Positions 49,705-61,931 of a stretch of 64,000 bases of DNA are shown here, piece after piece. Source of the DNA: an uncultured Chromatiales bacterium (lineage in GTDB: Bacteria > Bacteroidota > Ignavibacteria > SZUA-365); assembly GCA_964448285.1 (NCBI GenBank), contig CAYUWG010000006.1, positions 13,715 to 77,714 on the forward strand, read 5' to 3'. Position 1 is the stretch's first letter. The number at the start of each line of letters is the position of its first letter. The notes beneath the pieces were generated by a model. The model had not been told where the DNA came from. It did not search any database and saw only the letters and a program-made list of their open reading frames with translations. A program made the position numbers and the translations under genes.

Positions 49705-51090
49705 TCACACCGTGCTTGAGAAGACCGGCTTCTCCATCTGCTTCTTCAGATAGGCGTCGAATGCCATCGCGATGTTGCGGATGACGAGGATGCCCATGCC
49801 GAGCACCTCGATCTTGTCATCGGTGATGCGAACGAGACCATCGGCGACGGGTTCTTCCAACAGCGGATAGGTATCGGCGAAATAGGCGTCGAAGTCGATG
49901 CCGTATTTCTCTTCCACCTTTCGCTTGTCGAGTGAGAAGTCGCACATGATACTCATGATCACATCGCGACGAAGGACGTCGTCGTCGGTGAGGCGAATGC
50001 CTGCGTGCGTCGCAAGTTCGTTCGCGTCGATGCGTTTGTAGTACTCGCCGATCGTCTTCACATTCTGAGCATACATCCGGTCGAATTGCCCGATGCTCGT
50101 GATCCCGAAACCGTACAGGTCCGCGCCCGCGTGTGTCGTGTATCCCTGGAAGTTGCGATAGAGCGTACCGTTGCGCTGTGCGACGGCGAGTTCGTTGTCC
50201 TCCTTCGCGAAGTGATCCATGCCGACGTAGATATACCCCGCTTCATTCAAGCGCTCGATCGTGCGGACGAGAATGCGAAGCTTCTCTTCGGGCGTCGGCA
50301 AGTCTTCCGGATGGATGAGTGACATGTGCTTCTTGAGCCAAGGCACATGCGCGTAGTTGAACACTGCAAAACGGTCGGGATCGATGTCGATGACACGTTC
50401 GAGCGTTTCTTCGAACGTCTCCAACGTTTGAAAGGGCAGTCCGTAAATGAGGTCGAGATTGACGCTGTGGATGCCGACTTCATGCGCCCATTCGAGAACC
50501 TGACGGGTGATATCCTCCGGCTGAATGCGATTGACGGCAAGCTGCACATTCTCGTTGAAGTCCTGCACGCCCATCGAGATGCGGTTGAATCCGCCTTCTG
50601 CCAGCGCGACGAGATGATCCTTCGTCATTCCGCGCGGGTCGATCTCAACGCCTGCTTCGATGTTCGGGTCGAAGGGGAAGAGCGTTTTCGTTGCGAGCGC
50701 GAGATCGCGAATCTCATCCGGGTTGAGGTACGTGGGCGTGCCGCCTCCCCAAGCGATTTGCGCGGTGAGACGGTCATCGCGGATCATCGGTCGGAGCATT
50801 TCCATTTCGCGCTTGACGTACTGCACGTAGCGGTTGATCTTTTCGCGGTCTCGCGTGATGAGCATGTTGCAGCCGCAGAAATAGCAGAGTGTATCGCAGA
50901 ACGGAATGTGGAAATACAGAGACAAAGGCGGAGGTTTCGGGACCGCGTTCGTTCGCTCGATCTCCGCGCGGTAGTCTTCCGCCGTGAACGATTCACTGAA
51001 CGCAGGTGCAGTGGGATAACTTGTATAGCGCGGACCGGGTCGCGAGTATTTTTTCAGGAGATCAGTGTTTATCGTGTCGAATTGTTGCAT
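49705..51090 (-). CDS. hemN: Oxygen-independent coproporphyrinogen-III oxidase (radical SAM)
   Basis: YSRPGPRYTSYPTAPAF N-terminus and radical-SAM CxxxCxxC HIPFCDTLCYFCGCN. Confidence 0.88.
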   Translation of the reverse strand: MQQFDTINTDLLKKYSRPGPRYTSYPTAPAFSESFTAEDYRAEIERTNAVPKPPPLSLYFHIPFCDTLCYFCGCNMLITRDREKINRYVQYVKREMEMLRPMIRDDRLTAQIAWGGGTPTYLNPDEIRDLALATKTLFPFDPNIEAGVEIDPRGMTKDHLVALAEGGFNRISMGVQDFNENVQLAVNRIQPEDITRQVLEWAHEVGIHSVNLDLIYGLPFQTLETFEETLERVIDIDPDRFAVFNYAHVPWLKKHMSLIHPEDLPTPEEKLRILVRTIERLNEAGYIYVGMDHFAKEDNELAVAQRNGTLYRNFQGYTTHAGADLYGFGITSIGQFDRMYAQNVKTIGEYYKRIDANELATHAGIRLTDDDVLRRDVIMSIMCDFSLDKRKVEEKYGIDFDAYFADTYPLLEEPVADGLVRITDDKIEVLGMGILVIRNIAMAFDAYLKKQMEKPVFSSTV

Positions 51091-51142: not shown

Positions 51143-52156
51143 TCACATCCCGGTAAGCTCGTTCATTCTATTTCGAATGAGCAATTCAATTTCATCGAAC
51201 GGAATCGTTGCTTCTTTCTTGAAGTACCTCTCCGGGTCGAGGAGCAAACCGTTCACTAACTCAAAACGCTTTACGGGTGCGACTACCCAACGAAACGGCC
51301 CTTTGCTATTGAAACCGGGACTTCGAAAATAACCGGTGAAGACAAGGTAATCATGTCCCGGCATCATCCTGCTTCTTCTCCATTGCGATGAGTCACATGT
51401 AAAGACATCCCATTTAATGCGAAGGCATCCTGCTCCTTCCGGGAGTTCGTGTTGCAGTGGATTACAGCTTGAATAGAACCTTCGTCCTTTGTAAACTTCC
51501 ACGACTTCGACATCTGCGCACTGTGTAATCTTTGAACATGGCCCCGGCCATTCGACGGCAAAGCCCGTGTCATGTCGTTCAAAGAACGATAGACCTCTAA
51601 CACGATAAATTCCATCGGCTCTTCGAATAAGATCCTCTGGCTTATCAATATCCACTCCCTGATAATTTGCTATACCGAGATATCTTCTGTAGTACTCGGT
51701 TACCAGTTCCCAAATGTACCCGCTCCAATCGGATTTATACTCTTGAGGCTTATGAGTCCTCAAATAATGCCATTGAAATTCGAAAAGGAATGGATCGTAC
51801 ATTTGAGATTCATTGTACCATTTCCAAAGCATTTGTATCGAGTCATCAGCAATCATGGGTAATCGTTCTCTGGACTCGAATAGCGTGTATAGTCTGCAAG
51901 TGCTGTCGAGAAAAGTATAGAATCGTCTCACTTCATCAGGCATATCAGGATTTATGATCGGTATCCTCTCGGGTGGTGAGACGTGAAACACTTCGCAAGA
52001 ATCGGGATCAGGCCAGAATTCAAGGTTTATATTCTGACTGAAAGTTGAAGCGACAAGAACGAAGGTGAGAACATTTATGACGAGGAGTTGCTTCACACGG
52101 ATTCTTCTATCCAAAAAGGTCAAACACTTATTCGGCTGTCGTAACCGAATTCTCAT
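51143..52156 (-). CDS. Hypothetical secreted Cys-rich protein, paralog A
   Basis: 337 aa. EFWPDPDSCEVFHVSPPERIP near the N-terminus. The C-terminal ~170 aa are ~93-95% nucleotide-identical (my manual alignment) to paralog B at 53626..54615. Confidence 0.55.
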   Translation of the reverse strand: MRIRLRQPNKCLTFLDRRIRVKQLLVINVLTFVLVASTFSQNINLEFWPDPDSCEVFHVSPPERIPIINPDMPDEVRRFYTFLDSTCRLYTLFESRERLPMIADDSIQMLWKWYNESQMYDPFLFEFQWHYLRTHKPQEYKSDWSGYIWELVTEYYRRYLGIANYQGVDIDKPEDLIRRADGIYRVRGLSFFERHDTGFAVEWPGPCSKITQCADVEVVEVYKGRRFYSSCNPLQHELPEGAGCLRIKWDVFTCDSSQWRRSRMMPGHDYLVFTGYFRSPGFNSKGPFRWVVAPVKRFELVNGLLLDPERYFKKEATIPFDEIELLIRNRMNELTGM

Positions 52157-52391
52157 GAAACTCTCTGCTCATTTCCTTCACCGCATCGATCAGCGCTTTC
52201 GCATGTGATACCGGTACATCGGGAAGGATGCCGTGGCCGAGATTGAAGATATGGCCGGGGTGCGGGCCGTAGCATTTAAGGATGCTTCGAACTTCGCTGC
52301 GAATGTTCTCCGGCGATGCGTAGAGTGCGACCGGATCGAAGTTCACTTCACGGTTTCTGCTATAGAAAACTTCGAAACGCCTTTCTTTCAA
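52128..52391 (-). pseudogene. Duplicated 3' fragment of hemE (last ~70 codons of uroporphyrinogen decarboxylase)
   Basis: Translates to ...NFDPVALYASPENIRSEVRSILKCYGPHPGHIFNLGHGILPDVPVSHAKALIDAVKEMSREF... About 200 bp (52173-52373) are ~98% identical (my manual alignment) to 54675-54875 at the true hemE 3' end. Confidence 0.65.
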
Positions 52392-52399
52392 AAGTCCTA

Positions 52400-53620
52400 C
52401 TATCGCGTAACTAAAAATCGCATGGATTTAATAATGCTATCTGATGATACTACTGCGTAGTATGTCCCGGATGAGTATGACTGTGTAGGAATAGTAACAG
52501 TTTCCTTTAAGCTCCTCATTTCAATTATTCGCTTATCAACGATACTGCCATCGGCCGAGTAAATATCCAGCGCGAGATACTTTTCATTCGACTGTATCGT
52601 AATAAAAATATTAATAGAAGTTGGTTGAGGGTATAAGACTAATTTAATTGAAGAAGGAAATGGCCAAATCGCTTCAATGGCAGTTGGCTGACAACCGGAT
52701 AACGTAGCTGACTTTCTAAAACCAGCTAGATCAGGACAGTAAAGTTTCTTCAAAGCGCATCCCATATAACAAGAAATTGAGGACCTATTTTGGAAGTTGT
52801 CACTTAAATAACCGTCTAACATTGTCTCAGATGTTATGTTTTCGGGAGCCATAGAGGCATCAGTATTGCATGGTGAACCAAAACTATCAAACCCATGATT
52901 ACTTTTCAATCCCTCTATGTGCCCCAAACCAAGTGCATGTGCGATTTCATGCATCAAAATTGTCTCCATCTCTATACAGGTCTTTGTTTTCCCTGAGTTT
53001 GGGTCAATAACAGCTATTGCATCGCATTCCTTCGACCAACAGTGAGGCGGAAATTTGTCGTTCCCATCTCTAAATTCGTCTGTGAGATTTAGATACAGCA
53101 ATCCCGATCCAAATCCAGGTATAGGATAATTAGGGAAAATCGTTTCGGTAAAGCCAATAGCTGTATATATTTTATTATCTACCTCCGTGAAAGCTCCACC
53201 AGCACGACCTTCGGGGATAATCCCTATCCCATCGATGCAGCCTTCTTCAATGTTGATTGCAAGCAAAGAATTGTCAGGAGCGCAGACGTCATTTAAGGCC
53301 TGAACCACCTTTTCCAAGGCTGGTTTAAAGATGTCGAAAAGTTTATCTCCGTCGCAAGTGTGTTCCTCGTAATCTGTATTATTTGCATTTTTGTGAAAAG
53401 TTTCTTTGTCGTAACACATTTTGAGTGGCGTATGTGCTTTTTTTATCTGTGATACTGTAGAGGGATCGCGTGTACAAATAGTTTTTGCTTTTAACTCGGG
53501 ATTTCCATCGTTGTATAAATAGGAATAGTTGTATTTCTCTGGACATTGGCTATTCATGTTAAAACAATTAATAAAGCCAGCGACTATAATAGAAGTGTAT
53601 AGGAGTTTCACTCGTTTCAC
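52400..53620 (-). CDS. Zinc metalloprotease (zincin HEIAHALGLGH) with T9SS C-terminal sorting domain
   Basis: 406 aa with a signal peptide. HEIAHALGLGHIEG is an HExxHxxGxxH metzincin-type motif. C-terminal ...LVLYPQPTSINIFITIQSNEKYLALDIYSADGSIVDK...GTYYAVVSSDSIIKSMRFLVTR resembles a CTD. AT-rich. Confidence 0.7.
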   Translation of the reverse strand: MKRVKLLYTSIIVAGFINCFNMNSQCPEKYNYSYLYNDGNPELKAKTICTRDPSTVSQIKKAHTPLKMCYDKETFHKNANNTDYEEHTCDGDKLFDIFKPALEKVVQALNDVCAPDNSLLAINIEEGCIDGIGIIPEGRAGGAFTEVDNKIYTAIGFTETIFPNYPIPGFGSGLLYLNLTDEFRDGNDKFPPHCWSKECDAIAVIDPNSGKTKTCIEMETILMHEIAHALGLGHIEGLKSNHGFDSFGSPCNTDASMAPENITSETMLDGYLSDNFQNRSSISCYMGCALKKLYCPDLAGFRKSATLSGCQPTAIEAIWPFPSSIKLVLYPQPTSINIFITIQSNEKYLALDIYSADGSIVDKRIIEMRSLKETVTIPTQSYSSGTYYAVVSSDSIIKSMRFLVTR

Positions 53621-53625
53621 CGTGT

Positions 53626-54615
53626 TTATCCTCCTCTTCCTGTAAGTGTGTTCATCGTGTTTCGGATGAATAATTCAATTTCATAAAAAGGTATCGCTTC
53701 TTCTCTCTTGAAATACCTCTCCGGGTCGAGGAGCAAACCGTTCACTATCTCAAAACGCTTTATGGGTGCGACTACCCAACGAAATGGGCCATTGCTATTG
53801 AACCCAGGACTTCGAAAATAGCCGGTGAAGACAAGGTAATCATGTCCCGGCATCATCCTGCTGCTTCTCCATTGCGATGAGTCACATGTAAAGACGTTCC
53901 ATTTAATGCGAAGGCAGCCTGTTCCTTCCGGGAGTTCGTGTTGCAGTGGATTACAGCTTGAATAGAACCTCAGTCCTTTGTAAACTTCGACGACTTCAAC
54001 ATCTGCGCACTGCGTAATCTTTGAACATGGCCCTGGCCATTTGACGGTATAGCCTGTGTCATTCCGTTCGAAGAAAGATAGACCTCGGACACGGTATATG
54101 CCCTCAGAAGCAAAGATAAGCTCCTCAGGGAGGTTGATATTGGGACCTCTATAGTTTGCGTTTTCAATTCCCCTAAATCGTAATGAATACTCCATGTTTA
54201 ACGGTATAAGAACGTCTTGCCAGTCAGCTTTGTAATCAGGAATCGTTCGAAGCATTGAGTATCTGAGTTGATATAGTAGCAGAAACGGATCGTAATCAGC
54301 GATACGGTTATACAAATGCCATCCAATAATCAGGGAGTCATTAGAGATTAAAGGAATGCGTGCTCGTATCTCGTATGGAGTATAGGTCTTACAAATCGTA
54401 TCGAGGACAGTGTAAGCAAGCCACACATCCCAAGGCATATCAGGTCGTGTAACTGGTATCCTCTCAGGTGGTGAGACGTGAAAAACTTCGCATGAATCGG
54501 GATCTGGCCAAATCTCAAAACCATTGCCGGATTGACCATTGGTAGAGCTTACAAGGCATATGAGTAGAAAGAGAGCGAGGGTGGGTATCATGAAAGTCTC
54601 CTTAACGTTCATCAT
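53626..54615 (-). CDS. Hypothetical secreted Cys-rich protein, paralog B
   Basis: 329 aa with a signal peptide. Same family as 51143..52156; the N-terminal halves have diverged and the C-terminal halves are near-identical. Confidence 0.55.
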   Translation of the reverse strand: MMNVKETFMIPTLALFLLICLVSSTNGQSGNGFEIWPDPDSCEVFHVSPPERIPVTRPDMPWDVWLAYTVLDTICKTYTPYEIRARIPLISNDSLIIGWHLYNRIADYDPFLLLYQLRYSMLRTIPDYKADWQDVLIPLNMEYSLRFRGIENANYRGPNINLPEELIFASEGIYRVRGLSFFERNDTGYTVKWPGPCSKITQCADVEVVEVYKGLRFYSSCNPLQHELPEGTGCLRIKWNVFTCDSSQWRSSRMMPGHDYLVFTGYFRSPGFNSNGPFRWVVAPIKRFEIVNGLLLDPERYFKREEAIPFYEIELFIRNTMNTLTGRGG

Positions 54616-54663
54616 GGTACAACGATATCACTTTTCGTCATTGAAAGCAATAGAGATACTGTC

Positions 54664-55716
54664 TTATTTGACAATTTCCTTCACCGCATCAATCAGCGCT
54701 TTCGCATGTGATACCGGTACATCGGGAAGGATGCCGTGGCCGAGATTGAAGATATGGCCGGGGTGCGGGCCGTAGCTTTTAAGGATGCTTCGGACTTCGC
54801 TGCGAATGTTCTCCGGCGATGCGTAGAGTGCGACCGGATCGAAGTTCCCCTGAAGCGCTACACGGTTGTGCAGCGATGTGCGTACCTCCCCGATGTCCAC
54901 AGTCCAGTCGAGCCCGACAACGTCGCAACCGCATTCCGCAAGTTCCTGCAGCGACGTGTTCGCGCCTTTCGCAAAGACGATAACCGGAACGCTCGTGTTC
55001 GCTTTCACGTGCTCGACGATTTGCATGATGTACGGCAGCGAGAATTCGAGAAAGGCTTCTTTGCTGAGAATGCCCGCCCAAGTGTCGAAGATCTGCACGA
55101 CGTCCGCGCCGTGCTGCGCTTGAAACACGAGGTACTCGCTCACGACGCGCGATAATTTTTCGAGCAGCGTGTGCAACGTCGCGGGTTCATCGTAGAGCAT
55201 CGTCTTTACGACGGCGAAGTTTTTCGAGCCATGACCTTCGACGGCGTACGCAGCGAGCGTCCATGGTGCGCCGGCAAAGCCGATGAGCGGCACGCGGTCG
55301 TTCAACGCCCTCTTCGTCGTGCTGAGCGCGTCATACACGAACCGCAGATTCTCCGCAGCACCTTCGATCCGCAATGCGTCGATCGCTTCACGCGAACGAA
55401 GCGGAGACGGAAACCGCGGTCCGCCCTTTCCTTCCTCCACGATGAGTTCCATGCCCATCGCTTCCTGCACGACGAGGATGTCGGAGAAAATGATCGCGGC
55501 ATCCACACCGACGATGTCCACCGGTTGGATGGTGACTTCGGCGGCGAGTTCGGGAGTTTTGCAGAGCGTGAGGAAGTCCGCTTTCTCTCGAACCGCCCGA
55601 TACTCCGGGAGATAGCGCCCGGCTTGCCGCATCATCCACACGGGAGTGCGTTCGACGGGTTGACGGCGTGCGGCTCGGAGAAGGAGGTCGTTTTGAGGGG
55701 CGTTCGATGGAGGCAT
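54664..55716 (-). CDS. hemE: Uroporphyrinogen decarboxylase
   Basis: Start at ATG 55716 (MPPSNAPQNDLLLRAARRQPVERTPVWMMRQAGRYLPEYR, canonical HemE N-terminus). The track's longer start adds 42 unrelated residues. Confidence 0.88.
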   Translation of the reverse strand: MPPSNAPQNDLLLRAARRQPVERTPVWMMRQAGRYLPEYRAVREKADFLTLCKTPELAAEVTIQPVDIVGVDAAIIFSDILVVQEAMGMELIVEEGKGGPRFPSPLRSREAIDALRIEGAAENLRFVYDALSTTKRALNDRVPLIGFAGAPWTLAAYAVEGHGSKNFAVVKTMLYDEPATLHTLLEKLSRVVSEYLVFQAQHGADVVQIFDTWAGILSKEAFLEFSLPYIMQIVEHVKANTSVPVIVFAKGANTSLQELAECGCDVVGLDWTVDIGEVRTSLHNRVALQGNFDPVALYASPENIRSEVRSILKSYGPHPGHIFNLGHGILPDVPVSHAKALIDAVKEIVK

Positions 55717-56111
55717 GAAATACGGGGTAATTAGGGATTGCTTCGCGTGTAGTAAGTTCGGGTTGTTAAACCCGTACAATGTTACGAGATTAAAATATGG
55801 AGACGGATGATGAGAATCATACCCACGCGACTGATCGCTCAAACATGTACGCAGGAGAAGTGAAAAACTGTCTCCGTTCTTATTGTGTGAAGTCCATTGT
55901 TCCTACGACGACGCAATCTCTTCCTCTCGGCTATAAGCAGAACTGAGAAAGTGTGTCACACTTTCGATTCGTTACAAGGACCTCACGATAAACGACCGCA
56001 CTTGCTCATTATCGAGTGTAACCCAACTCCTGTACGATGTGTCTTTCATTGCATAGATTGGACTCCTCTTTCCAATCACATGATCTAAACGATACAGCAA
56101 CGGAGGTATCA

Positions 56112-57440
56112 ATGAGTCTGAAACGGTTACAGAGTGAAGTTGTTCTTCGTCTGGCATTGCTCGTATGTGCAGCAGGCTCGTTGTTTTTTGGCATTGCTTG
56201 CGATGACGACCCGCCGATGAAGCCGCCACCTGTGCTCGGCGAGATCACACTAACACTTGTGGATGTTGGTGTTACTGAAGCGGTTATAAGGGTCGCTTTC
56301 CCGGATTCCATTGGCTATTGGACGCTCAGCCTCCGACGCGACGGTCAGACGTTGCGGACCTTGACTGTGCAGAGGAGGGACACGATCCTCACAGACCAGG
56401 AGCTTACGCCTTCCCGGACCTACACTTACCAAGTTGTTCGCATGATCGATTCCATAACGATGAGGGAGAAGAGCAACGAACTACGCGTGACGACGATGGC
56501 GCCGACCTCCTCTGCGTTCCATTGGCGCCTTGATTCACTTGCGGGTGGGACTTCGAGTGCGCTATATGACGTAGCGATCATTAGAACGGATCCACCATTG
56601 ATTTACGCGGTCGGGGAAATGTACAAATCAGGGGAATCGAAGCTCTACAATCTGGCCGTTTGGAAGGGGCAGGAGTGGGAGTTGAAGCGAGTTACTGCAA
56701 TGTTTAGGGGAAATCCGGTAACCGTGCGACTTGAAGGAGTATTCGCGCATTCTGAGACAGATATATGGCTTGCAGGTGGTCTTCCTATTCATGGGGATGG
56801 AGATAATTGGACATTGTATGATCCCCGAGCTCAGCTTGGTGACAGCGTTTCAGTTTCGAGGGTTTGGGGTACTGAGAAAGACATGTACTTCGTAGGACGT
56901 GGCGGAACCATCTTACACTTCAATGGAACAAGCTGGCGTAGAATCATCAGCGGAACGACATTGCCATTCCGTGGTCTTTATGGCGCTCCTACGAAGGATG
57001 GTACCGATTACGAAATCCTATGTGTGGGGGACGGCTACATGGAACCAGGAGGAAGCAAGGTCTTTTCTATAAGGGATGGCAAGACGACCTTGGTCTGGAC
57101 GGACCCCCGGCAAGATGGACTCGACGATATCTGGTTCATACCGGGGAAGAGGTATATCGTCGTAGGAGACGGTTTCTGGGAAACGGATTCGCTCTCAAAG
57201 CCATTTACGAAGAGAGATGTTTTGACATCAGCCGCAAAGCACTCGATTTATGGAATAGATAATAGAGACATTTTCGCGGCTGGTTCGTTCAAATTGTTGG
57301 CTCATTTCAACGGTTACAAATGGACATCCTTTTTCCCATTCAGTTCAGGAGGTTTCGGTTCCGTCAAAATGAAAGGCGATCTCGTTGTCGCCGTTGGCGC
57401 TGACGGGAGATATGCTCTTGCCGCTATCGGGAAAAGATGA
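56112..57440 (+). CDS. Hypothetical lipoprotein (N-terminal Ig/Fn3-like region plus beta-propeller-like repeats)
   Basis: Start ATG 56112 with a GGAGG RBS. Signal + lipobox FFGIAC. Repeated DIW..G and W..G strands. Confidence 0.5.
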   Translation: MSLKRLQSEVVLRLALLVCAAGSLFFGIACDDDPPMKPPPVLGEITLTLVDVGVTEAVIRVAFPDSIGYWTLSLRRDGQTLRTLTVQRRDTILTDQELTPSRTYTYQVVRMIDSITMREKSNELRVTTMAPTSSAFHWRLDSLAGGTSSALYDVAIIRTDPPLIYAVGEMYKSGESKLYNLAVWKGQEWELKRVTAMFRGNPVTVRLEGVFAHSETDIWLAGGLPIHGDGDNWTLYDPRAQLGDSVSVSRVWGTEKDMYFVGRGGTILHFNGTSWRRIISGTTLPFRGLYGAPTKDGTDYEILCVGDGYMEPGGSKVFSIRDGKTTLVWTDPRQDGLDDIWFIPGKRYIVVGDGFWETDSLSKPFTKRDVLTSAAKHSIYGIDNRDIFAAGSFKLLAHFNGYKWTSFFPFSSGGFGSVKMKGDLVVAVGADGRYALAAIGKR

Positions 57441-57562
57441 TTCTAATCTAATATCCGATGCAATCTCTTATTGATAGTACTTTGACCTTTGTAAACCGAA
57501 GCCATTTTAAATGCCAATGGCTTTTCACACCCAATCATAGATCAAACAGATAGAGGAGTTCC

Positions 57563-60500
57563 ATGAACATCCACATCATTTTCGCAAGTCTCGTTGCAAG
57601 CATGCTTTGCCTGAGCAGTACTGTTCATGCACAACAACAACAGCCTTTTCCACCACTAAGCGACAGTATTTCGCTTCCGCAGTACATTCATACTGTGACG
57701 ATGTCTTCTCTGGACATTGAAACACTACTCACCGAAGACAGCATAGATGCGCAATATTCAAACATCCCACCTCGTTTTGGTTTCGCTCAACCAGTCGATT
57801 TAGGCGTCACGAATGCTGGAACCTGGGACACACTGGTATCCGGAGATCGCATCTGGCGTCTCAGAATCATTTCAAGCGGCGCATACTCAATAAACCTCAA
57901 CTTCAACAGGTTTCTCATACCTGAAGGAGGAAGGTTATTCGTGTACAATGAACAGAAAACGATGACTATAGGAGCTTTCACTAACGAAAACAACCTTCCT
58001 GACAGCGTCTTCGCAACGCGACCGGTGAAAGGCGACACGATAATCCTTGAGTACAACCATCCCGCGTCAGCCCAGGTCCTTCCACTGCTGAACATTGTTG
58101 GAATCGTACATGGTTACAGGGATATGTTTAGCAACGATGCAGGATTCCGGAGATCCCTTTTCTGCCAGCGGAATGTTCATTGCCCTGAAGGCACGGAATG
58201 GCAAATGCAAGCGCGCAGCGTTGCTATGGTGCTCAATGATAAAGGACAAAGGTGGTGCAGTGGGGCCACGATCAACGATGTTACTAATAATAGTGATAAA
58301 GCGTACTTCATCACAGCAGACCACTGCCTTTCTGGATCAGACCCATCCGGATCCGGACTCGTATTCATCTTCAGCTATGAAAGCGCTGACTGTGACTATC
58401 CACCGAGTGAACCAAGTACAGATAAATCGATAAATGGCGCGACAATCATTTCGCGCTGCAGTACGGTAGATATTGCACTTTTGGAGCTATCTAAGTTGCC
58501 TCATAAACTATACGACCCGGATATCTACTATGCAGGTTGGAGTTTAGACGACATCGCACCTAGCCGCATAGCTGTAGTTCACCATCCGAAGGGTGACATT
58601 AAAAAAATCCTTCTCTCGAGCAGTATCCCGGTTTTCAATACTTCATTCATAGAAGCCAATGTGAATGAAACAACAGGCCTTGTTGAGTCAGCGACGTCAG
58701 GCGCCCCGGCATTTGACCAAAACGGTCGGATTATCGGTATCGTTACTGATGCGATGAATAAGGAAGGTTGTTCGATAATAGGTGATCTTTTCATCTCACG
58801 ACTCTCTGCCGCTTTTGAGTGCCAGACAGCTCCACTCAAAACCTCACTGGATCCTAATGACATCGGTGTTCTTCGTATCAACGGTCGTCATCCATATCCT
58901 CCCGCAGATGTTGAAATCACAGTCGATCAGAAGCGAGCGAGCGACGACCGGCTGGCAAATACGATTGTTGAACGTTGGGATTTTACAAATTCCAATTTCG
59001 CCAACCTTGATATCACGGACCAGCCAGCCACCTTCACATCGACGAAAGCCGCTCTCGAAGTACTTAAGGGCATGCAGGATCGGGTAGAAAATCCGAATGA
59101 GAAATACCATGTTTGGAGGATCGGTTCTCAATCCCCCCTCTTCAGCAACGTCCAAAATCAAAGAAGCTTCTTCATTAGAGAGCAACCCATTACGATTACT
59201 TCACAATTCAACTATACGAAGGAGAACGTCATCATCGCGACGGACCTCTTCGAGCATAACCCACCCGCGATGGGAGGAGAGATCAACTTCCTCGACCCGT
59301 GGTACATTGACTTCCAGGACCCTTTATATAACAATAGTTGGCGCAATCGAGGAATGAACCAGGCTTTCCCGCACTCACGCAGCGTCGGTACTACAGGGTT
59401 CAAACCGTATTTTACGACTCCCTTCCAGGAGAGCCCTAATCATCCATATCGAGGAGTCTTTCTGAATCAAAACCCATTGTGGTTGCCACATATTCCAAAC
59501 TACTCCCTCTCTGTTCCTGAAGTTCAAACCATCAATGGTGTTGATTATGCGGCCATCGGTTGGTATAGTCCGAATCAGAAAGCATCGCTTCAATACCCGG
59601 ATAGACTGGAAACAGGTGTTGTGTTCGAGGAAGAAGATGCAAACGAGCCAATCGTCAAGGCTCGCCTGAAGGGACATTTGCTTTCAACATCAACCACACC
59701 GCCCACGAAAAACAACAACCAACGTAAAATCGCTATACAGTTCATGGGAAGTGGGCAAGAGAAACATCTTCATGCCGTGTATGAAAGCGGTGGTCGTATC
59801 TATTACACGAAGTCCACAAACCACGGAACTTCCTGGAGTGGTGAAGTGCTTGTCAGTAATTTCACTGAAACAACATCCGTAAACCCGAGCATCGCTTTTG
59901 AAGGCAACCACGTCTTTGTGACCTATGTAGAAGGGAGTGATATTGTCACCAAGTCGAAAGATTATCAACAAGACATCTGGTTGGAAATAGATAGGCAGTC
60001 GTTAAGGGTACCGATGGCAAGTGTACCTGCAATTGCTGCTTCGTTGGTTGCACTCTCCAATGAACCTTACCCAATTCCAGTTTGTGTAACAATCTGGGAG
60101 GATGGAGATAAAAAATTGAAGTATTCCGTGGTAAGGTTCGATGGGACTCCTGGAGAAGTCGAAATCTCCGGTTCATGGACACCAGCGCTTGGTTTGGAAC
60201 TTCGTGAGGGACGCTATATTGGACAGACACAAGTTCAACCACGATACCCTTCTATCGTTGGCCAACGAAATGGAACTATGCCAGGGTTCGGAATCGTATG
60301 GAACGAACATGGTGAGCTTTACTACAGCGATTTAAACGTGTTGGGTGAAGTTCAAAATACGTTTCGCATCTATCATTATAACCAGGCCGAATTGGTACGA
60401 TCAACGGCTGGATACGGAATACTTGCGAATCAGGCACCTTCAATTACTCTGATAAACAATACGTATCCAATTATCGCTTACACATGCAACAGAAGTATGA

Positions 60501-61789
60501 GCAATCCTGTCTTCTTACCTACACAAACGACGGTAGGAGGACTACAACTTGGCCCGGGAAATGTACAATGGTCTCCATGCTTATATGGGACGAACGAAAT
60601 TATTGTTCGAATGCGATCAGGATCAATCGGTTCTGCAGCATCTTCTGGTTGGAGTGTACAGACATACGCATCACGAAATCAATGTAACGAAGTGTGGGAC
60701 CCATCTATCAGCCATACGGGTGAAGATCCATTGTTTGGAATAAACTTGTACCATGGTCTTCGCGTCGTCGCAAACGATGGTATCAGGACACATAGTGTCG
60801 GAAGAGTATCGCTTAGCTCGTCGTTTTTTGTTACACGAGAAAGAGACGGATACGATCCAAATCTCCCAGTATATGGTTTTTACGATTCGCAACAGTCGAA
60901 TAATCTGAGATACCTTGCGTCAAATCTTGCCTCATCCCCATTCGTACATGGAATATCTTCAGATGATTTTGCAATGACACCAAAAACAGCGGCGTTCACC
61001 ACCCATCACGTGCGGTTGCTCATAGCTACCGGCGACAACGACACGACCTTTGCACTCTACGGCATACACAACCCCGTCGTCCGCGACGGCGAGCAAAACG
61101 AAACCCCAATCGAATGGCTTATGACGGTGGATACAACGACAATACAAGAAGGCATAACTATCGAAGAGCGCATGCGGTCGGATGCCTTTACCGTCCCGAT
61201 GTCAGGCTCGATGAAATACGGGGTCATGCTCTATGCTCGCAATACGAACCAGTTCGAACAGCAATTCAACTTCATCGTGAAGTTCATCAGCACGTCGAGC
61301 GGGAACGTTGTCCTATCGGATTCCATCGCGGCAAGCGCTTTGCCTGACAGCAATATCTATGCGGAATACGTTATCGATCTCTCTTCGATTGCAGGACAGG
61401 AAGTCTATTTGACAGCTACGCTTTCGACGACGCCGGATTCGGCGTTCACCGAGGTAATCGATCTCTTCATCACGGAAGAGGATGCGGAGAAAGTCAGAGC
61501 GCGTGAGCAAGAGAAGCTTACACCCGGTGGTATCACGTTGGATGAGAACCGTCCCAATCCTTTCAGCGCTTCGACTTCGATTACCTTCTCTATTCAGGAA
61601 TCAGGAACCGTTCGACTTTCGGTCTATGATCTTTACGGTCGTCTCATGAAAGAGATTATCAACGGTCGTCGCAATGCCGGTCGTTACACGCACACTTTCA
61701 GTGCCTCCGAGCTTCCATCCGGCGTCTATCTTTATCGCCTTGAAGCGAACGGCCAGATGCTCACCCGGCGCATGTCGGTCATCAAATGA
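57563..61789 (+). CDS. Large T9SS-secreted protein with N-terminal trypsin-like (V8/glutamyl-endopeptidase-like S1B) serine protease domain
   Basis: 1408 aa with a signal peptide. AYFITADHCL (His), ESATSGAPAFDQNGRIIGIVTD (parallels GNSGSPVFNEKNEVIGI of V8 protease, Ser retained). About 900 aa of beta-rich sequence follow. C-terminal CTD ...LSVYDLYGRLMKEIINGRRNAGRYTHTFSASELPSGVYLYRLEANGQMLTRRMSVIK. Confidence 0.75.
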   Translation: MNIHIIFASLVASMLCLSSTVHAQQQQPFPPLSDSISLPQYIHTVTMSSLDIETLLTEDSIDAQYSNIPPRFGFAQPVDLGVTNAGTWDTLVSGDRIWRLRIISSGAYSINLNFNRFLIPEGGRLFVYNEQKTMTIGAFTNENNLPDSVFATRPVKGDTIILEYNHPASAQVLPLLNIVGIVHGYRDMFSNDAGFRRSLFCQRNVHCPEGTEWQMQARSVAMVLNDKGQRWCSGATINDVTNNSDKAYFITADHCLSGSDPSGSGLVFIFSYESADCDYPPSEPSTDKSINGATIISRCSTVDIALLELSKLPHKLYDPDIYYAGWSLDDIAPSRIAVVHHPKGDIKKILLSSSIPVFNTSFIEANVNETTGLVESATSGAPAFDQNGRIIGIVTDAMNKEGCSIIGDLFISRLSAAFECQTAPLKTSLDPNDIGVLRINGRHPYPPADVEITVDQKRASDDRLANTIVERWDFTNSNFANLDITDQPATFTSTKAALEVLKGMQDRVENPNEKYHVWRIGSQSPLFSNVQNQRSFFIREQPITITSQFNYTKENVIIATDLFEHNPPAMGGEINFLDPWYIDFQDPLYNNSWRNRGMNQAFPHSRSVGTTGFKPYFTTPFQESPNHPYRGVFLNQNPLWLPHIPNYSLSVPEVQTINGVDYAAIGWYSPNQKASLQYPDRLETGVVFEEEDANEPIVKARLKGHLLSTSTTPPTKNNNQRKIAIQFMGSGQEKHLHAVYESGGRIYYTKSTNHGTSWSGEVLVSNFTETTSVNPSIAFEGNHVFVTYVEGSDIVTKSKDYQQDIWLEIDRQSLRVPMASVPAIAASLVALSNEPYPIPVCVTIWEDGDKKLKYSVVRFDGTPGEVEISGSWTPALGLELREGRYIGQTQVQPRYPSIVGQRNGTMPGFGIVWNEHGELYYSDLNVLGEVQNTFRIYHYNQAELVRSTAGYGILANQAPSITLINNTYPIIAYTCNRSMSNPVFLPTQTTVGGLQLGPGNVQWSPCLYGTNEIIVRMRSGSIGSAASSGWSVQTYASRNQCNEVWDPSISHTGEDPLFGINLYHGLRVVANDGIRTHSVGRVSLSSSFFVTRERDGYDPNLPVYGFYDSQQSNNLRYLASNLASSPFVHGISSDDFAMTPKTAAFTTHHVRLLIATGDNDTTFALYGIHNPVVRDGEQNETPIEWLMTVDTTTIQEGITIEERMRSDAFTVPMSGSMKYGVMLYARNTNQFEQQFNFIVKFISTSSGNVVLSDSIAASALPDSNIYAEYVIDLSSIAGQEVYLTATLSTTPDSAFTEVIDLFITEEDAEKVRAREQEKLTPGGITLDENRPNPFSASTSITFSIQESGTVRLSVYDLYGRLMKEIINGRRNAGRYTHTFSASELPSGVYLYRLEANGQMLTRRMSVIK

Positions 61790-61813
61790 TCGGTTCGTTA
61801 CTTCATCGATCTA

Positions 61814-61842
61814 AAAACGTCTGTTTACGCGGGCGTTTTTTA
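61814..61842 (+). terminator. Weak AT-rich hairpin plus T-tract after the 1408-aa gene
   Basis: AAAAACG-(loop)-CGTTTTTT at 61814-61841. Low stem stability. Confidence 0.3.
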
Positions 61843-61931
61843 TATACGCGGATTCTTTATACAACCTTTTCCTGAGGCGTATTTGAAACGCGTTATCGCA
61901 ATGCGCTTCCAAACAACCGACGCAAATCGTT

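Follow-up and report, generated by a model that had tools for sequence, protein, structure and literature searches.

In homology-facilitated illegitimate recombination, incoming DNA is held by a homologous anchor at one end and is joined illegitimately at the other, and no carried recombinase is needed; direct repeats of the 3' end of a gene together with reconstitution of that gene are the classic layout of integrative elements. Regarding the inhibition of metalloproteases, TIMPs act through a free N-terminal Cys1, and the AprI/Inh proteins are periplasmic serralysin inhibitors of about 100 amino acids (aa) that form 8-stranded barrels and are encoded beside secreted M10B proteases leaving the cell by type I secretion. 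In Tannerella forsythia, open reading frames (ORFs) encoding inhibitors, among them three OB-folds, lie immediately upstream of peptidases of the type IX secretion system (T9SS); these potempins are outer-membrane lipoproteins of 98-132 residues, and one of them, PotA, blocks the M10-like karilysin (PMC9890683). Investigation of a 64,000-nucleotide stretch of an uncultured Chromatiales bacterium (GTDB lineage Bacteria; Bacteroidota; Ignavibacteria; SZUA-365; assembly GCA_964448285.1, contig CAYUWG010000006.1, positions 13,715 to 77,714 of the forward strand), here called the window, revealed in its heme operon a pair of genes for a secreted protein of an unannotated family, termed X, and a Cys-rich zinc metalloprotease-like protein with a T9SS sorting domain. 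This pair lies between the uroporphyrinogen decarboxylase gene hemE and a displaced piece of the 3' end of hemE, which is followed by a second gene of the X family (Table 1).

The explanation that we favour overall, with moderate confidence, is that the pair, comprising the X gene X_B and the protease gene, was inserted as a cassette at the 3' end of hemE beside an older X gene, X_A, that recombination at a domain boundary shaped the X genes, and that X is a partner of the protease. Regarding gene order, the minus strand of the window reads hemE, X_B, the protease gene, a spacer of 55 bp, the hemE fragment, X_A, hemN, and a c-type cytochrome gene. In the related genomes compared, hemE is followed directly by hemN at a distance of approximately 40-100 bp (contigs L010, L015, L020, and L022), hemC, hemD, and hemE are contiguous in eight relatives, and in the closest relative (L010, 72% hemE identity), hemC, hemD, hemE, and hemN form one uninterrupted, tightly packed run. 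The nearest hemE, at 72%, is from a metagenome-assembled genome (MAG) labelled 'Bacteroidetes bacterium', and the next, at 60-65%, are from Bacteroidota/Ignavibacteriota MAGs. Neither X nor the protease is present at this site in the relatives and, since hemE and hemN are adjacent in them, the whole block of 3.5 kb between these genes in the window is an insertion of acquired DNA, consisting of the two-gene cassette of X_B and the protease plus the orphan paralogue X_A.

An acquired origin fits the low guanine plus cytosine (GC) content of this block, which is 0.39 in the protease gene and 0.42-0.48 in the X genes, compared with 0.56-0.57 in hemE and hemN and 0.557 in the hemE fragment itself. 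A previous sequence-only reading of the window had described the segment as AT-rich and as possibly an acquired module that had used the 3' end of hemE as recombination substrate; the GC values and the direct succession of hemE and hemN in the relatives bear out both statements. Nothing supports the further suggestion of a virulence module; the module is better described as a secreted, degradative protease accompanied by a partner protein.

Self-comparison recovered the repeats that this reading had described, with small corrections of the coordinates, and no copies of the repeated DNA in the 64-kb window besides those of three repeats. The repeat of the hemE 3' end is 174 bp long with three mismatches (98.3% identity, blastn E 2.6e-85), both copies being on the same strand with an offset of 2503 bp; it had been given as about 200 bp (54675-54875) at approximately 98% identity, of which the identity holds while the upper end lay about 28 bp too far. 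The second repeat, which covers the C-terminal domain of the X genes, is 444 bp long, ungapped, and 90.3% identical (blastn E 1e-168), with co-oriented copies at an offset of 2489 bp; the identity is approximately 94% at its centre and 76-82% at its edges, so that the halves previously described (51211-51620 versus 53701-54110, 93-95%) exist and correspond in identity to the centre of a repeat that is longer and less similar overall. Chance cannot account for either of these two repeats. The third is an 87-bp island of 85% identity within the N-terminal coding part of the X genes, encoding the motif WPDPDSCEVFHVSPPERIP.

Approximately 2.33 kb of cassette DNA (54673 to 52345, GC 0.39-0.46) separate the two copies of the hemE repeat, each corresponding to the final 174 bp of the gene body, giving the layout hemE body, 174 bp, new tail with X_B, protease gene, and 55 bp, then 174 bp, old tail, X_A, and hemN. 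The upstream hemE is intact, its residues 50-389 covering positions 2-345 of the 346 positions of the Pfam profile URO-D, while the ORF at 52128-52391 that contains the downstream piece covers positions 288-345 only, in agreement with the pseudo-fragment proposed earlier; the displaced 3' end is a non-functional remnant. The working hemE ends in AVKEIVK with a novel tail of three codons, and its homology to the fragment stops 9 nt before the stop codon. In the four relatives compared, hemE ends in AVKEISVEIRNEEQE, AVKKFSVQYHQ, or AVKEESLKYH, and the fragment tail, with KEMSREFHEN as against KEIVK at the end of the working gene, resembles these tails. Because of this similarity the fragment tail looks native, and the tail of the working hemE seems to be new, shorter, and derived from the inserted DNA, a judgement made from four relatives. 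The hemE tails of the two units (A, with the fragment and X_A; B, with the working hemE and X_B) and their hemE-X spacers are not alignable.

The fragment has three private substitutions (at 52290, 52274, and 52188), and copy B of the repeat is identical to the hemE of a haplotype with a single X gene (L003, see below). The substitution at 52274 replaces Ser by Cys (KSYG to KCYG), and those at 52290 and 52188 are synonymous; together they fit a remnant drifting without selection and are too few to test this. Regarding the start of hemE, the longest ORF begins with TTG at 55842 and thereby has about 45 extra N-terminal residues that are absent from homologues; the Pfam match begins at residue 50 and the alignments with relatives at residues 26-51, so that the true start probably lies downstream of this TTG (window positions 55700-55842).

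Regarding the history of the X genes, Nei-Gojobori estimates of synonymous (dS) and non-synonymous (dN) divergence between X_A and X_B differ along the protein. Residues 61-174 (X_B numbering) are 43% identical at the protein and 51% at the DNA level, with dS saturated and a dN of 0.54, which agrees with the 40-50% protein identity reported for the N-terminal parts in the sequence-only reading; residues 175-326 are 88% identical, with a dS of 0.37, a dN of 0.06, and a dN/dS of approximately 0.16; and the motif at residues 31-60 is 77% identical, with a dS of 0.92 and a dN of 0.15. The three repeat classes are thus of three ages, namely the hemE 3' repeat with 1.7% divergence (3/174), the C-domain with a dS of 0.37, and the N-domain with saturated dS. 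Synonymous sites are saturated in the N-domain and not in the C-domain, and therefore selection alone cannot explain the pattern; accelerated evolution of the X_A N-domain after duplication was rejected as sole cause of the mosaic on this ground.

The relationships of the two halves also conflict. In the N-domain, X_B is 56% identical to P0003, a homologue from another metagenome, versus 43% to X_A, and X_A is farther than X_B from the closest family members, while in the C-domain X_A and X_B are mutual closest relatives at 88% and either is 64% identical to P0003. The halves of X thus have different histories, and the three ages and conflicting relationships support the earlier view that the mosaic requires more than one recombination event. 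In the AlphaFold2 (AF2) model of X_B, which has a predicted local distance difference test (pLDDT) score of 89.6, a helical domain (residues ~62-169) is followed by a beta domain (172-309) and a C-terminal helix, and the start of the repeat at residue 175 coincides with the boundary between the helical and beta domains. The X_A ORF is intact and has kept all residues that are invariant in the family.

A haplotype with a single X gene was found in three samples (Logan L003-L005), in which hemE is followed by one X gene, hemN, and the cytochrome gene, with neither protease gene nor hemE fragment. The hemE, tail, and spacer of this haplotype are of the B type and the N-domain of its X is 97-98% X_B-like, while from the first informative site of the repeat onwards X is 98% X_A-like, with hemN then following at 99%. 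On the evidence of this haplotype, the X locus would be polymorphic in nature. Two other Logan contigs (L001 and L002), 99.9-100% identical to the window, run from the 3' end of X_B through the protease gene and across its junction with the hemE fragment, and this junction is therefore real and recurrent. Both contigs begin at the first 31-mer that leaves a 34-nt run common to both X copies; L002 ends exactly 30 nt into the hemE repeat, and L001 one base before the third single-nucleotide polymorphism (SNP) of the fragment. If Logan uses a k-mer length of 31, which we take to be the case, these ends match the branching of an assembly graph in which both copies are present.

We propose that the cassette entered a chromosome already carrying hemE, X_A, and hemN through one homologous crossover in hemE and one illegitimate join at hemE position -174, that is, by homology-facilitated illegitimate recombination or, equivalently, by Campbell-type integration of a circular molecule that contained the 174-bp segment. 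The incoming DNA would probably have come from a closely related strain, and the event would have duplicated its target. X_B would have arrived together with the protease gene as a unit, because the pair is found elsewhere without hemE (see below). X_A and X_B may be old paralogues between which the C-terminal beta domain, with a breakpoint at residue 175, and the N-terminal motif were later exchanged, and recombination at the residue-175 boundary could give the single-X haplotype with the N-domain of X_B and the C-domain of X_A. The six genes from hemE to hemN read in one direction and probably form one transcript; a scan of 49.5-56.2 kb for sigma-70 promoters and terminators gave nothing above the shuffled expectation, the consensus probably being wrong for this phylum. 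The recombination mechanisms invoked are already known ones, and the direct duplication of the anchor is the same as in homology-facilitated illegitimate recombination and Campbell insertion, here deduced from the end-product only. No convincing microhomology was seen at the two junctions in the alignment.

Several observations weigh against this proposal. The switch in the single-X haplotype coincides exactly with the limit of the homology block, an unlikely position for ordinary homologous recombination, and therefore either order of events (a window-like ancestor that underwent deletion, or the opposite course) may apply; our reading is that single-X recombinants may survive only when joined at the domain linker. 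The link between the fragment and X_A, and the N-domain of X_A, are seen only in the MAG contig of the window, no donor with hemE, X_B, and the protease gene was found, and the tail of the working hemE could be a truncated form of the true hemE tail.

Regarding the protease, the gene between the copies (at 52400-53620) that had been described as a T9SS metalloprotease gene encodes a HEIAHALGLGH motif and matches T9SS profiles above their cut-offs (PF18962, 27.9 bits versus a cut-off of 27; TIGR04183, 26.8 versus 23; residues 329-404 of 406). The gene is single copy in the window and starts 5 nt after the X_B stop codon. In four protease homologues, which share the T9SS domain, the His, Glu, and Gly positions of HEXXHXXGXXH and 10 Cys are invariant. 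The M10 profile PF00413 scores 19.2 bits over 24 residues only, below its cut-off of 24, no curated NCBIfam family matches the catalytic part, and sequence searches of the PDB returned noise only. The protein is rare, with two clusters among 5.8 billion proteins. In the NCBI record the protease (P0005, 385 aa) is given an internal Met as its start and so lacks the signal peptide (window positions 53558-53620); with GTG at 53620 as the start, which is the gene call on the Logan contigs (406 aa), the protein regains a signal peptide with the boundary NS/QC, as in homologues.

The X proteins are equally without annotation, and no match was found in Pfam or NCBIfam for X or for 32 family members. 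In X_B, Gln follows the signal peptide, and then come a conserved N-terminal motif, the helical domain, the beta domain, and the C-terminal helix. X proteins are 316-329 aa long, with an invariant Gln after the signal peptide, no lipobox Cys, and no T9SS domain; the predicted mature N-terminus is Gln28, probably pyroglutamate, and the first Cys is residue 42. Four clusters were found among 5.8 billion proteins, and a homology search of the paralogue family, a check named in the sequence-only reading, detected 61 representatives at E<=1e-3 among 1.84 billion proteins. Scanning of the GTDB species-representative genomes with the X alignment revealed no relative, the scan of JGI metagenomes nothing beyond L090, a duplicate of the L007 record, and exact look-ups of P0002 (X_A) and P0005 no record beyond the NCBI contig.

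An X gene followed by a protease gene at a distance of 3-22 bp is present in L008, L009, and L091-L093, with a different neighbourhood in each. In L008 X is 44% and the protease 31% identical (E 1e-35), in L009 the C-half of X is 64% and the protease 49% identical, and in L091-L093, where the pair lies beside a ferritin gene, X is approximately 34% and the protease 34% identical (E 2e-58). The pair of L091 forms a low-GC islet (0.42 versus 0.54), and no flanking duplications surround the pairs of L091, L092, and L009. X_B and the HEXXHXXGXXH/T9SS protease thus form a conserved gene pair, present in at least three unrelated contigs.

Regarding the neighbourhoods of X-family genes, the pair in L009 (1916-6502) is followed by genes for a 429-aa protein without family and three multiheme c-type cytochromes, and the pair in the window likewise lies among heme and cytochrome genes. 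The X-family members P0010 and P0007 are each encoded just downstream of a divergently oriented ferritin gene, and in L091 (4880-8130) and L092 (613-3863) the X gene is followed by the protease homologue, while the contig L095 (236-2089) ends 78 nt into the gene after X, the start of its product resembling a signal peptide. The orphan homologue P0003 (L006, 1-720 and 2109-2525) has upstream of it a gene for an extracytoplasmic function (ECF)-type sigma factor and an ORF of 118 aa, and is followed by a convergent hemerythrin gene; this hints that its regulation in that lineage is linked to stress or oxygen. P0011, a distant member (28% identity), adjoins a Transposase_mut gene (L097, 1743-2972; L096, 1854-3269), the only mobile-element gene seen near any X-family member.

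Regarding the function of X, we tentatively propose, by analogy with described systems, that it may be a periplasmic cognate inhibitor of the protease, a role that we regard as the likeliest one for X, although somewhat short of probable. X would keep the protease silent before T9SS export, with the conserved OB-like beta domain as scaffold and the variable helical domain modulating specificity. In both X and the protease the signal peptide is followed by an invariant Gln, an arrangement known as the 'Q-rule' of Bacteroidetes; X has no T9SS domain and therefore should stay periplasmic when the protease is exported. Among PDB folds, TIMP-2 (1br9) matches the X_B model best, at a marginal level (E 3.6e-3, probability 0.99, 102 columns, template modelling (TM) scores 0.18/0.29), followed by TIMP-2 in complex with matrix metalloproteinase 13 (MMP-13; 2e2d_C) and then by many OB-fold single-stranded DNA-binding proteins.

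Among the described systems, the potempin/KLIKK arrangement is likewise one of a secreted, T9SS-domain-free ORF immediately upstream of a co-oriented T9SS-exported peptidase in Bacteroidota hosts, and one of its pairs, PotA and karilysin, combines an OB-fold protein with an M10-like zinc peptidase (PMC9890683). X differs from the potempins in its extra variable helical domain and in the lack of sequence similarity, and its inhibitory activity is putative. The likeness to TIMP-2 and its MMP partners lies in a disulfide-rich protein with an OB-like barrel, putative in X, and in a partner with a HEXXHXXGXXH zinc site, while X begins with Gln or pyroglutamate, has its first Cys about 15 residues in, and shows a marginal fold match and no profile similarity. 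As with AprI/Inh, a Sec-exported periplasmic protein encoded in one operon with a zinc protease may guard the cell from that protease as it leaves by a dedicated system; unlike AprI/Inh, this system is the T9SS and not type I secretion, there is no homology, and X is larger.

The inhibitor proposal is weakened by several points. The PDB sequence searches gave no sequence or profile similarity of X to any solved protein (noise only), and the X profile compared with TIMP-2 gave an hhalign probability of 0.1, with an approximate TIMP-2 sequence. The predicted N-terminal Gln or pyroglutamate rules out zinc chelation by the N-terminus in the manner of TIMPs. Potempins are single beta-barrel lipoproteins, while X, at about 300 residues, is three times larger and has a type I signal peptide and no lipobox. 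The AF2 model of the protease (pLDDT 37.6, from two sequences) is too poor to show a Met-turn or a metzincin fold, and X genes without a protease neighbour include X_A, those of L003-L005 and L006/L007, P0009, and P0011. The main rival is that X is not an inhibitor and is instead a chaperone of folding or maturation, a co-secreted substrate-binding accessory, or a protein unrelated to the protease. In favour of this alternative are the size of X (about 300 aa) and its large helical domain, which set it apart from the small inhibitors known, the frequency of orphan X genes, and the marginal fold evidence; we nevertheless find the alternative rather unlikely, given that the tight order of X then protease is conserved down to 31-34% protease identity and that X, lacking a sorting domain, should remain periplasmic while the protease leaves the cell.

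The inhibitor proposal can be taken further, to a joint reading that we offer as a long shot: X would be a new family of inhibitors, periplasmic in location, for a new family of Cys-rich metzincin-like T9SS proteases, with an OB-like, TIMP-like scaffold and a swappable helical specificity domain, orphans such as X_A might provide extra 'immunity' against protease variants of neighbours, and the locus could diversify by recombination at the domain boundary, like toxin-immunity islands.

Regarding the origin of the locus, the alternative that survives best, itself unlikely in our estimate, is a metagenome-assembly chimera in which a strain with hemE, X_B, the protease gene, and further sequence and a strain with hemE, X_A, and hemN were stitched together through the shared 3' sequence of hemE. 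The window is indeed part of a MAG contig (94,753 bp), the only one with the fragment-X_A link, and its fragment has two substitutions absent from L001, the remaining 1399 bp being identical. The junction of the protease, 55 bp, and hemE -174 is, however, present in at least two independent assemblies, so that the displaced hemE piece exists regardless; the three SNPs leave no shared run of more than 85 nt, and large-k assembly can therefore separate the copies. The ends of L001 and L002 fall exactly at k-1 positions, which implies that both copies are in those samples, and the single-X haplotype, with a left half of the B type and a right half of the A type, is most easily derived from a chromosome with both.

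The sequence-only reading had explained the same arrangement mainly as a tandem duplication followed by patchy gene conversion; the duplicated unit would here be hemE 3' end, X, and protease, with loss of the second protease. The same order and orientation of the two units and their nearly equal offsets (2489 and 2503 bp) are as expected from such an event, and at two of the three positions where the window fragment departs from hemE, the fragment in L001 agrees with hemE, which would fit conversion between the copies. This account does not hold well against the protease gene and the 55-bp spacer being single copy, with no remnant of a second protease between X_A and hemN, the unalignable tails and spacers of the two units, and the uneven divergence at three levels (saturated dS in the N-domain, 0.37 in the C-domain, 1.7% in the hemE repeat); furthermore, the N-domain of X_B is nearer to P0003 than to that of X_A, and the relatives have no X or protease at the site. 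We therefore judge it quite improbable.

An integrase-mediated islet targeting the 3' end of hemE, with the 174-bp repeats as attL and attR, is very hard to credit, since, although direct repeats of a gene 3' end flank foreign low-GC DNA and the insert reconstitutes the gene, no Pfam family of integrases, recombinases, or transposases was detected in the 44-64 kb part of the window including the DNA between the repeats (a recombinase being absent there, this candidate was rejected), only two cargo genes (X_B and the protease) lie between the repeats, the X-protease pairs of L091 and L009 lack flanking duplications, and 174 bp is long for an att core.

Besides the cassette insertion favoured here, a second insertion of 6.1 kb, on the opposite strand, is present in the heme operon (55900-61900) and separates hemD from hemE, unlike in the relatives, where hemD abuts hemE. 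It contains two ORFs (Table 1), one of them for a trypsin-like protein with a T9SS sorting domain, and one operon has thus received two separate T9SS-protease cargoes.

Table 1. Features of the heme operon region of the window (coordinates are positions in the 64,000-nucleotide stretch).
Feature	Coordinates	Strand	Remarks
hemN (oxygen-independent coproporphyrinogen III oxidase)	49705..51090	-	Pfam Radical_SAM and HemN_C
X_A, orphan paralogue	51143..52114	-	323 aa from the TTG start of the NCBI record; ATG at 52156 gives 337 aa
X C-domain repeat, copy A	51161..51604	-	matches the C-half of L003 (single-X haplotype) at ~98% identity
N-terminal motif island	51938..52023	-	encodes the conserved motif; recurs at 54433-54518
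Displaced hemE 3' end	52128..52344	-	repeat copy A (52171-52344) plus a longer tail ending in AVKEMSREFHENSVTTAE before the stop codon
Spacer after the protease stop codon	52345..52399	-	55 bp, GC 0.38, single copy; ends at the junction with hemE position -174
Cys-rich zinc metalloprotease-like protein, 406 aa	52400..53620	-	signal peptide, HEIAHALGLGH, T9SS type A C-terminal sorting domain
X_B, secreted protein of unannotated family, 329 aa	53626..54615	-	
X C-domain repeat, copy B	53650..54093	-	starts at X_B residue 175
Putative left edge of the inserted DNA	54616..54673	-	apparent new hemE tail (TGTCAAATAA) plus spacer upstream of X_B
hemE (uroporphyrinogen decarboxylase), intact	54664..55842	-	URO-D, E 1.7e-139
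hemE 3' repeat, copy B	54674..54847	-	within the working hemE, codons ~331-388
Protein without family, 467 aa	56037-57440	+	GC of the two ORFs 0.47-0.50
Trypsin-like protein with T9SS sorting domain, 1408 aa	57563-61789	+	see preceding row

Thus, the locus gives a base-pair view of a housekeeping operon (hemC-D-E-N) that would have gained a cargo of secreted proteins without mobile-element machinery, and in which the repeats left behind would keep the locus polymorphic in natural populations. It also exposes a rare unannotated pair, a secreted two-domain protein of about 300 aa and a Cys-rich HEXXHXXGXXH T9SS protease, which is conserved across divergent uncultured Bacteroidota-like bacteria and may be a fresh form of the inhibitor-protease theme. 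Should X have some other role, the locus would still be an ordinary case of insertion and recombination; if it is an inhibitor, X would be a second, unrelated answer to the problem of self-protection solved by the potempins, and could be a source of specific metalloprotease inhibitors.

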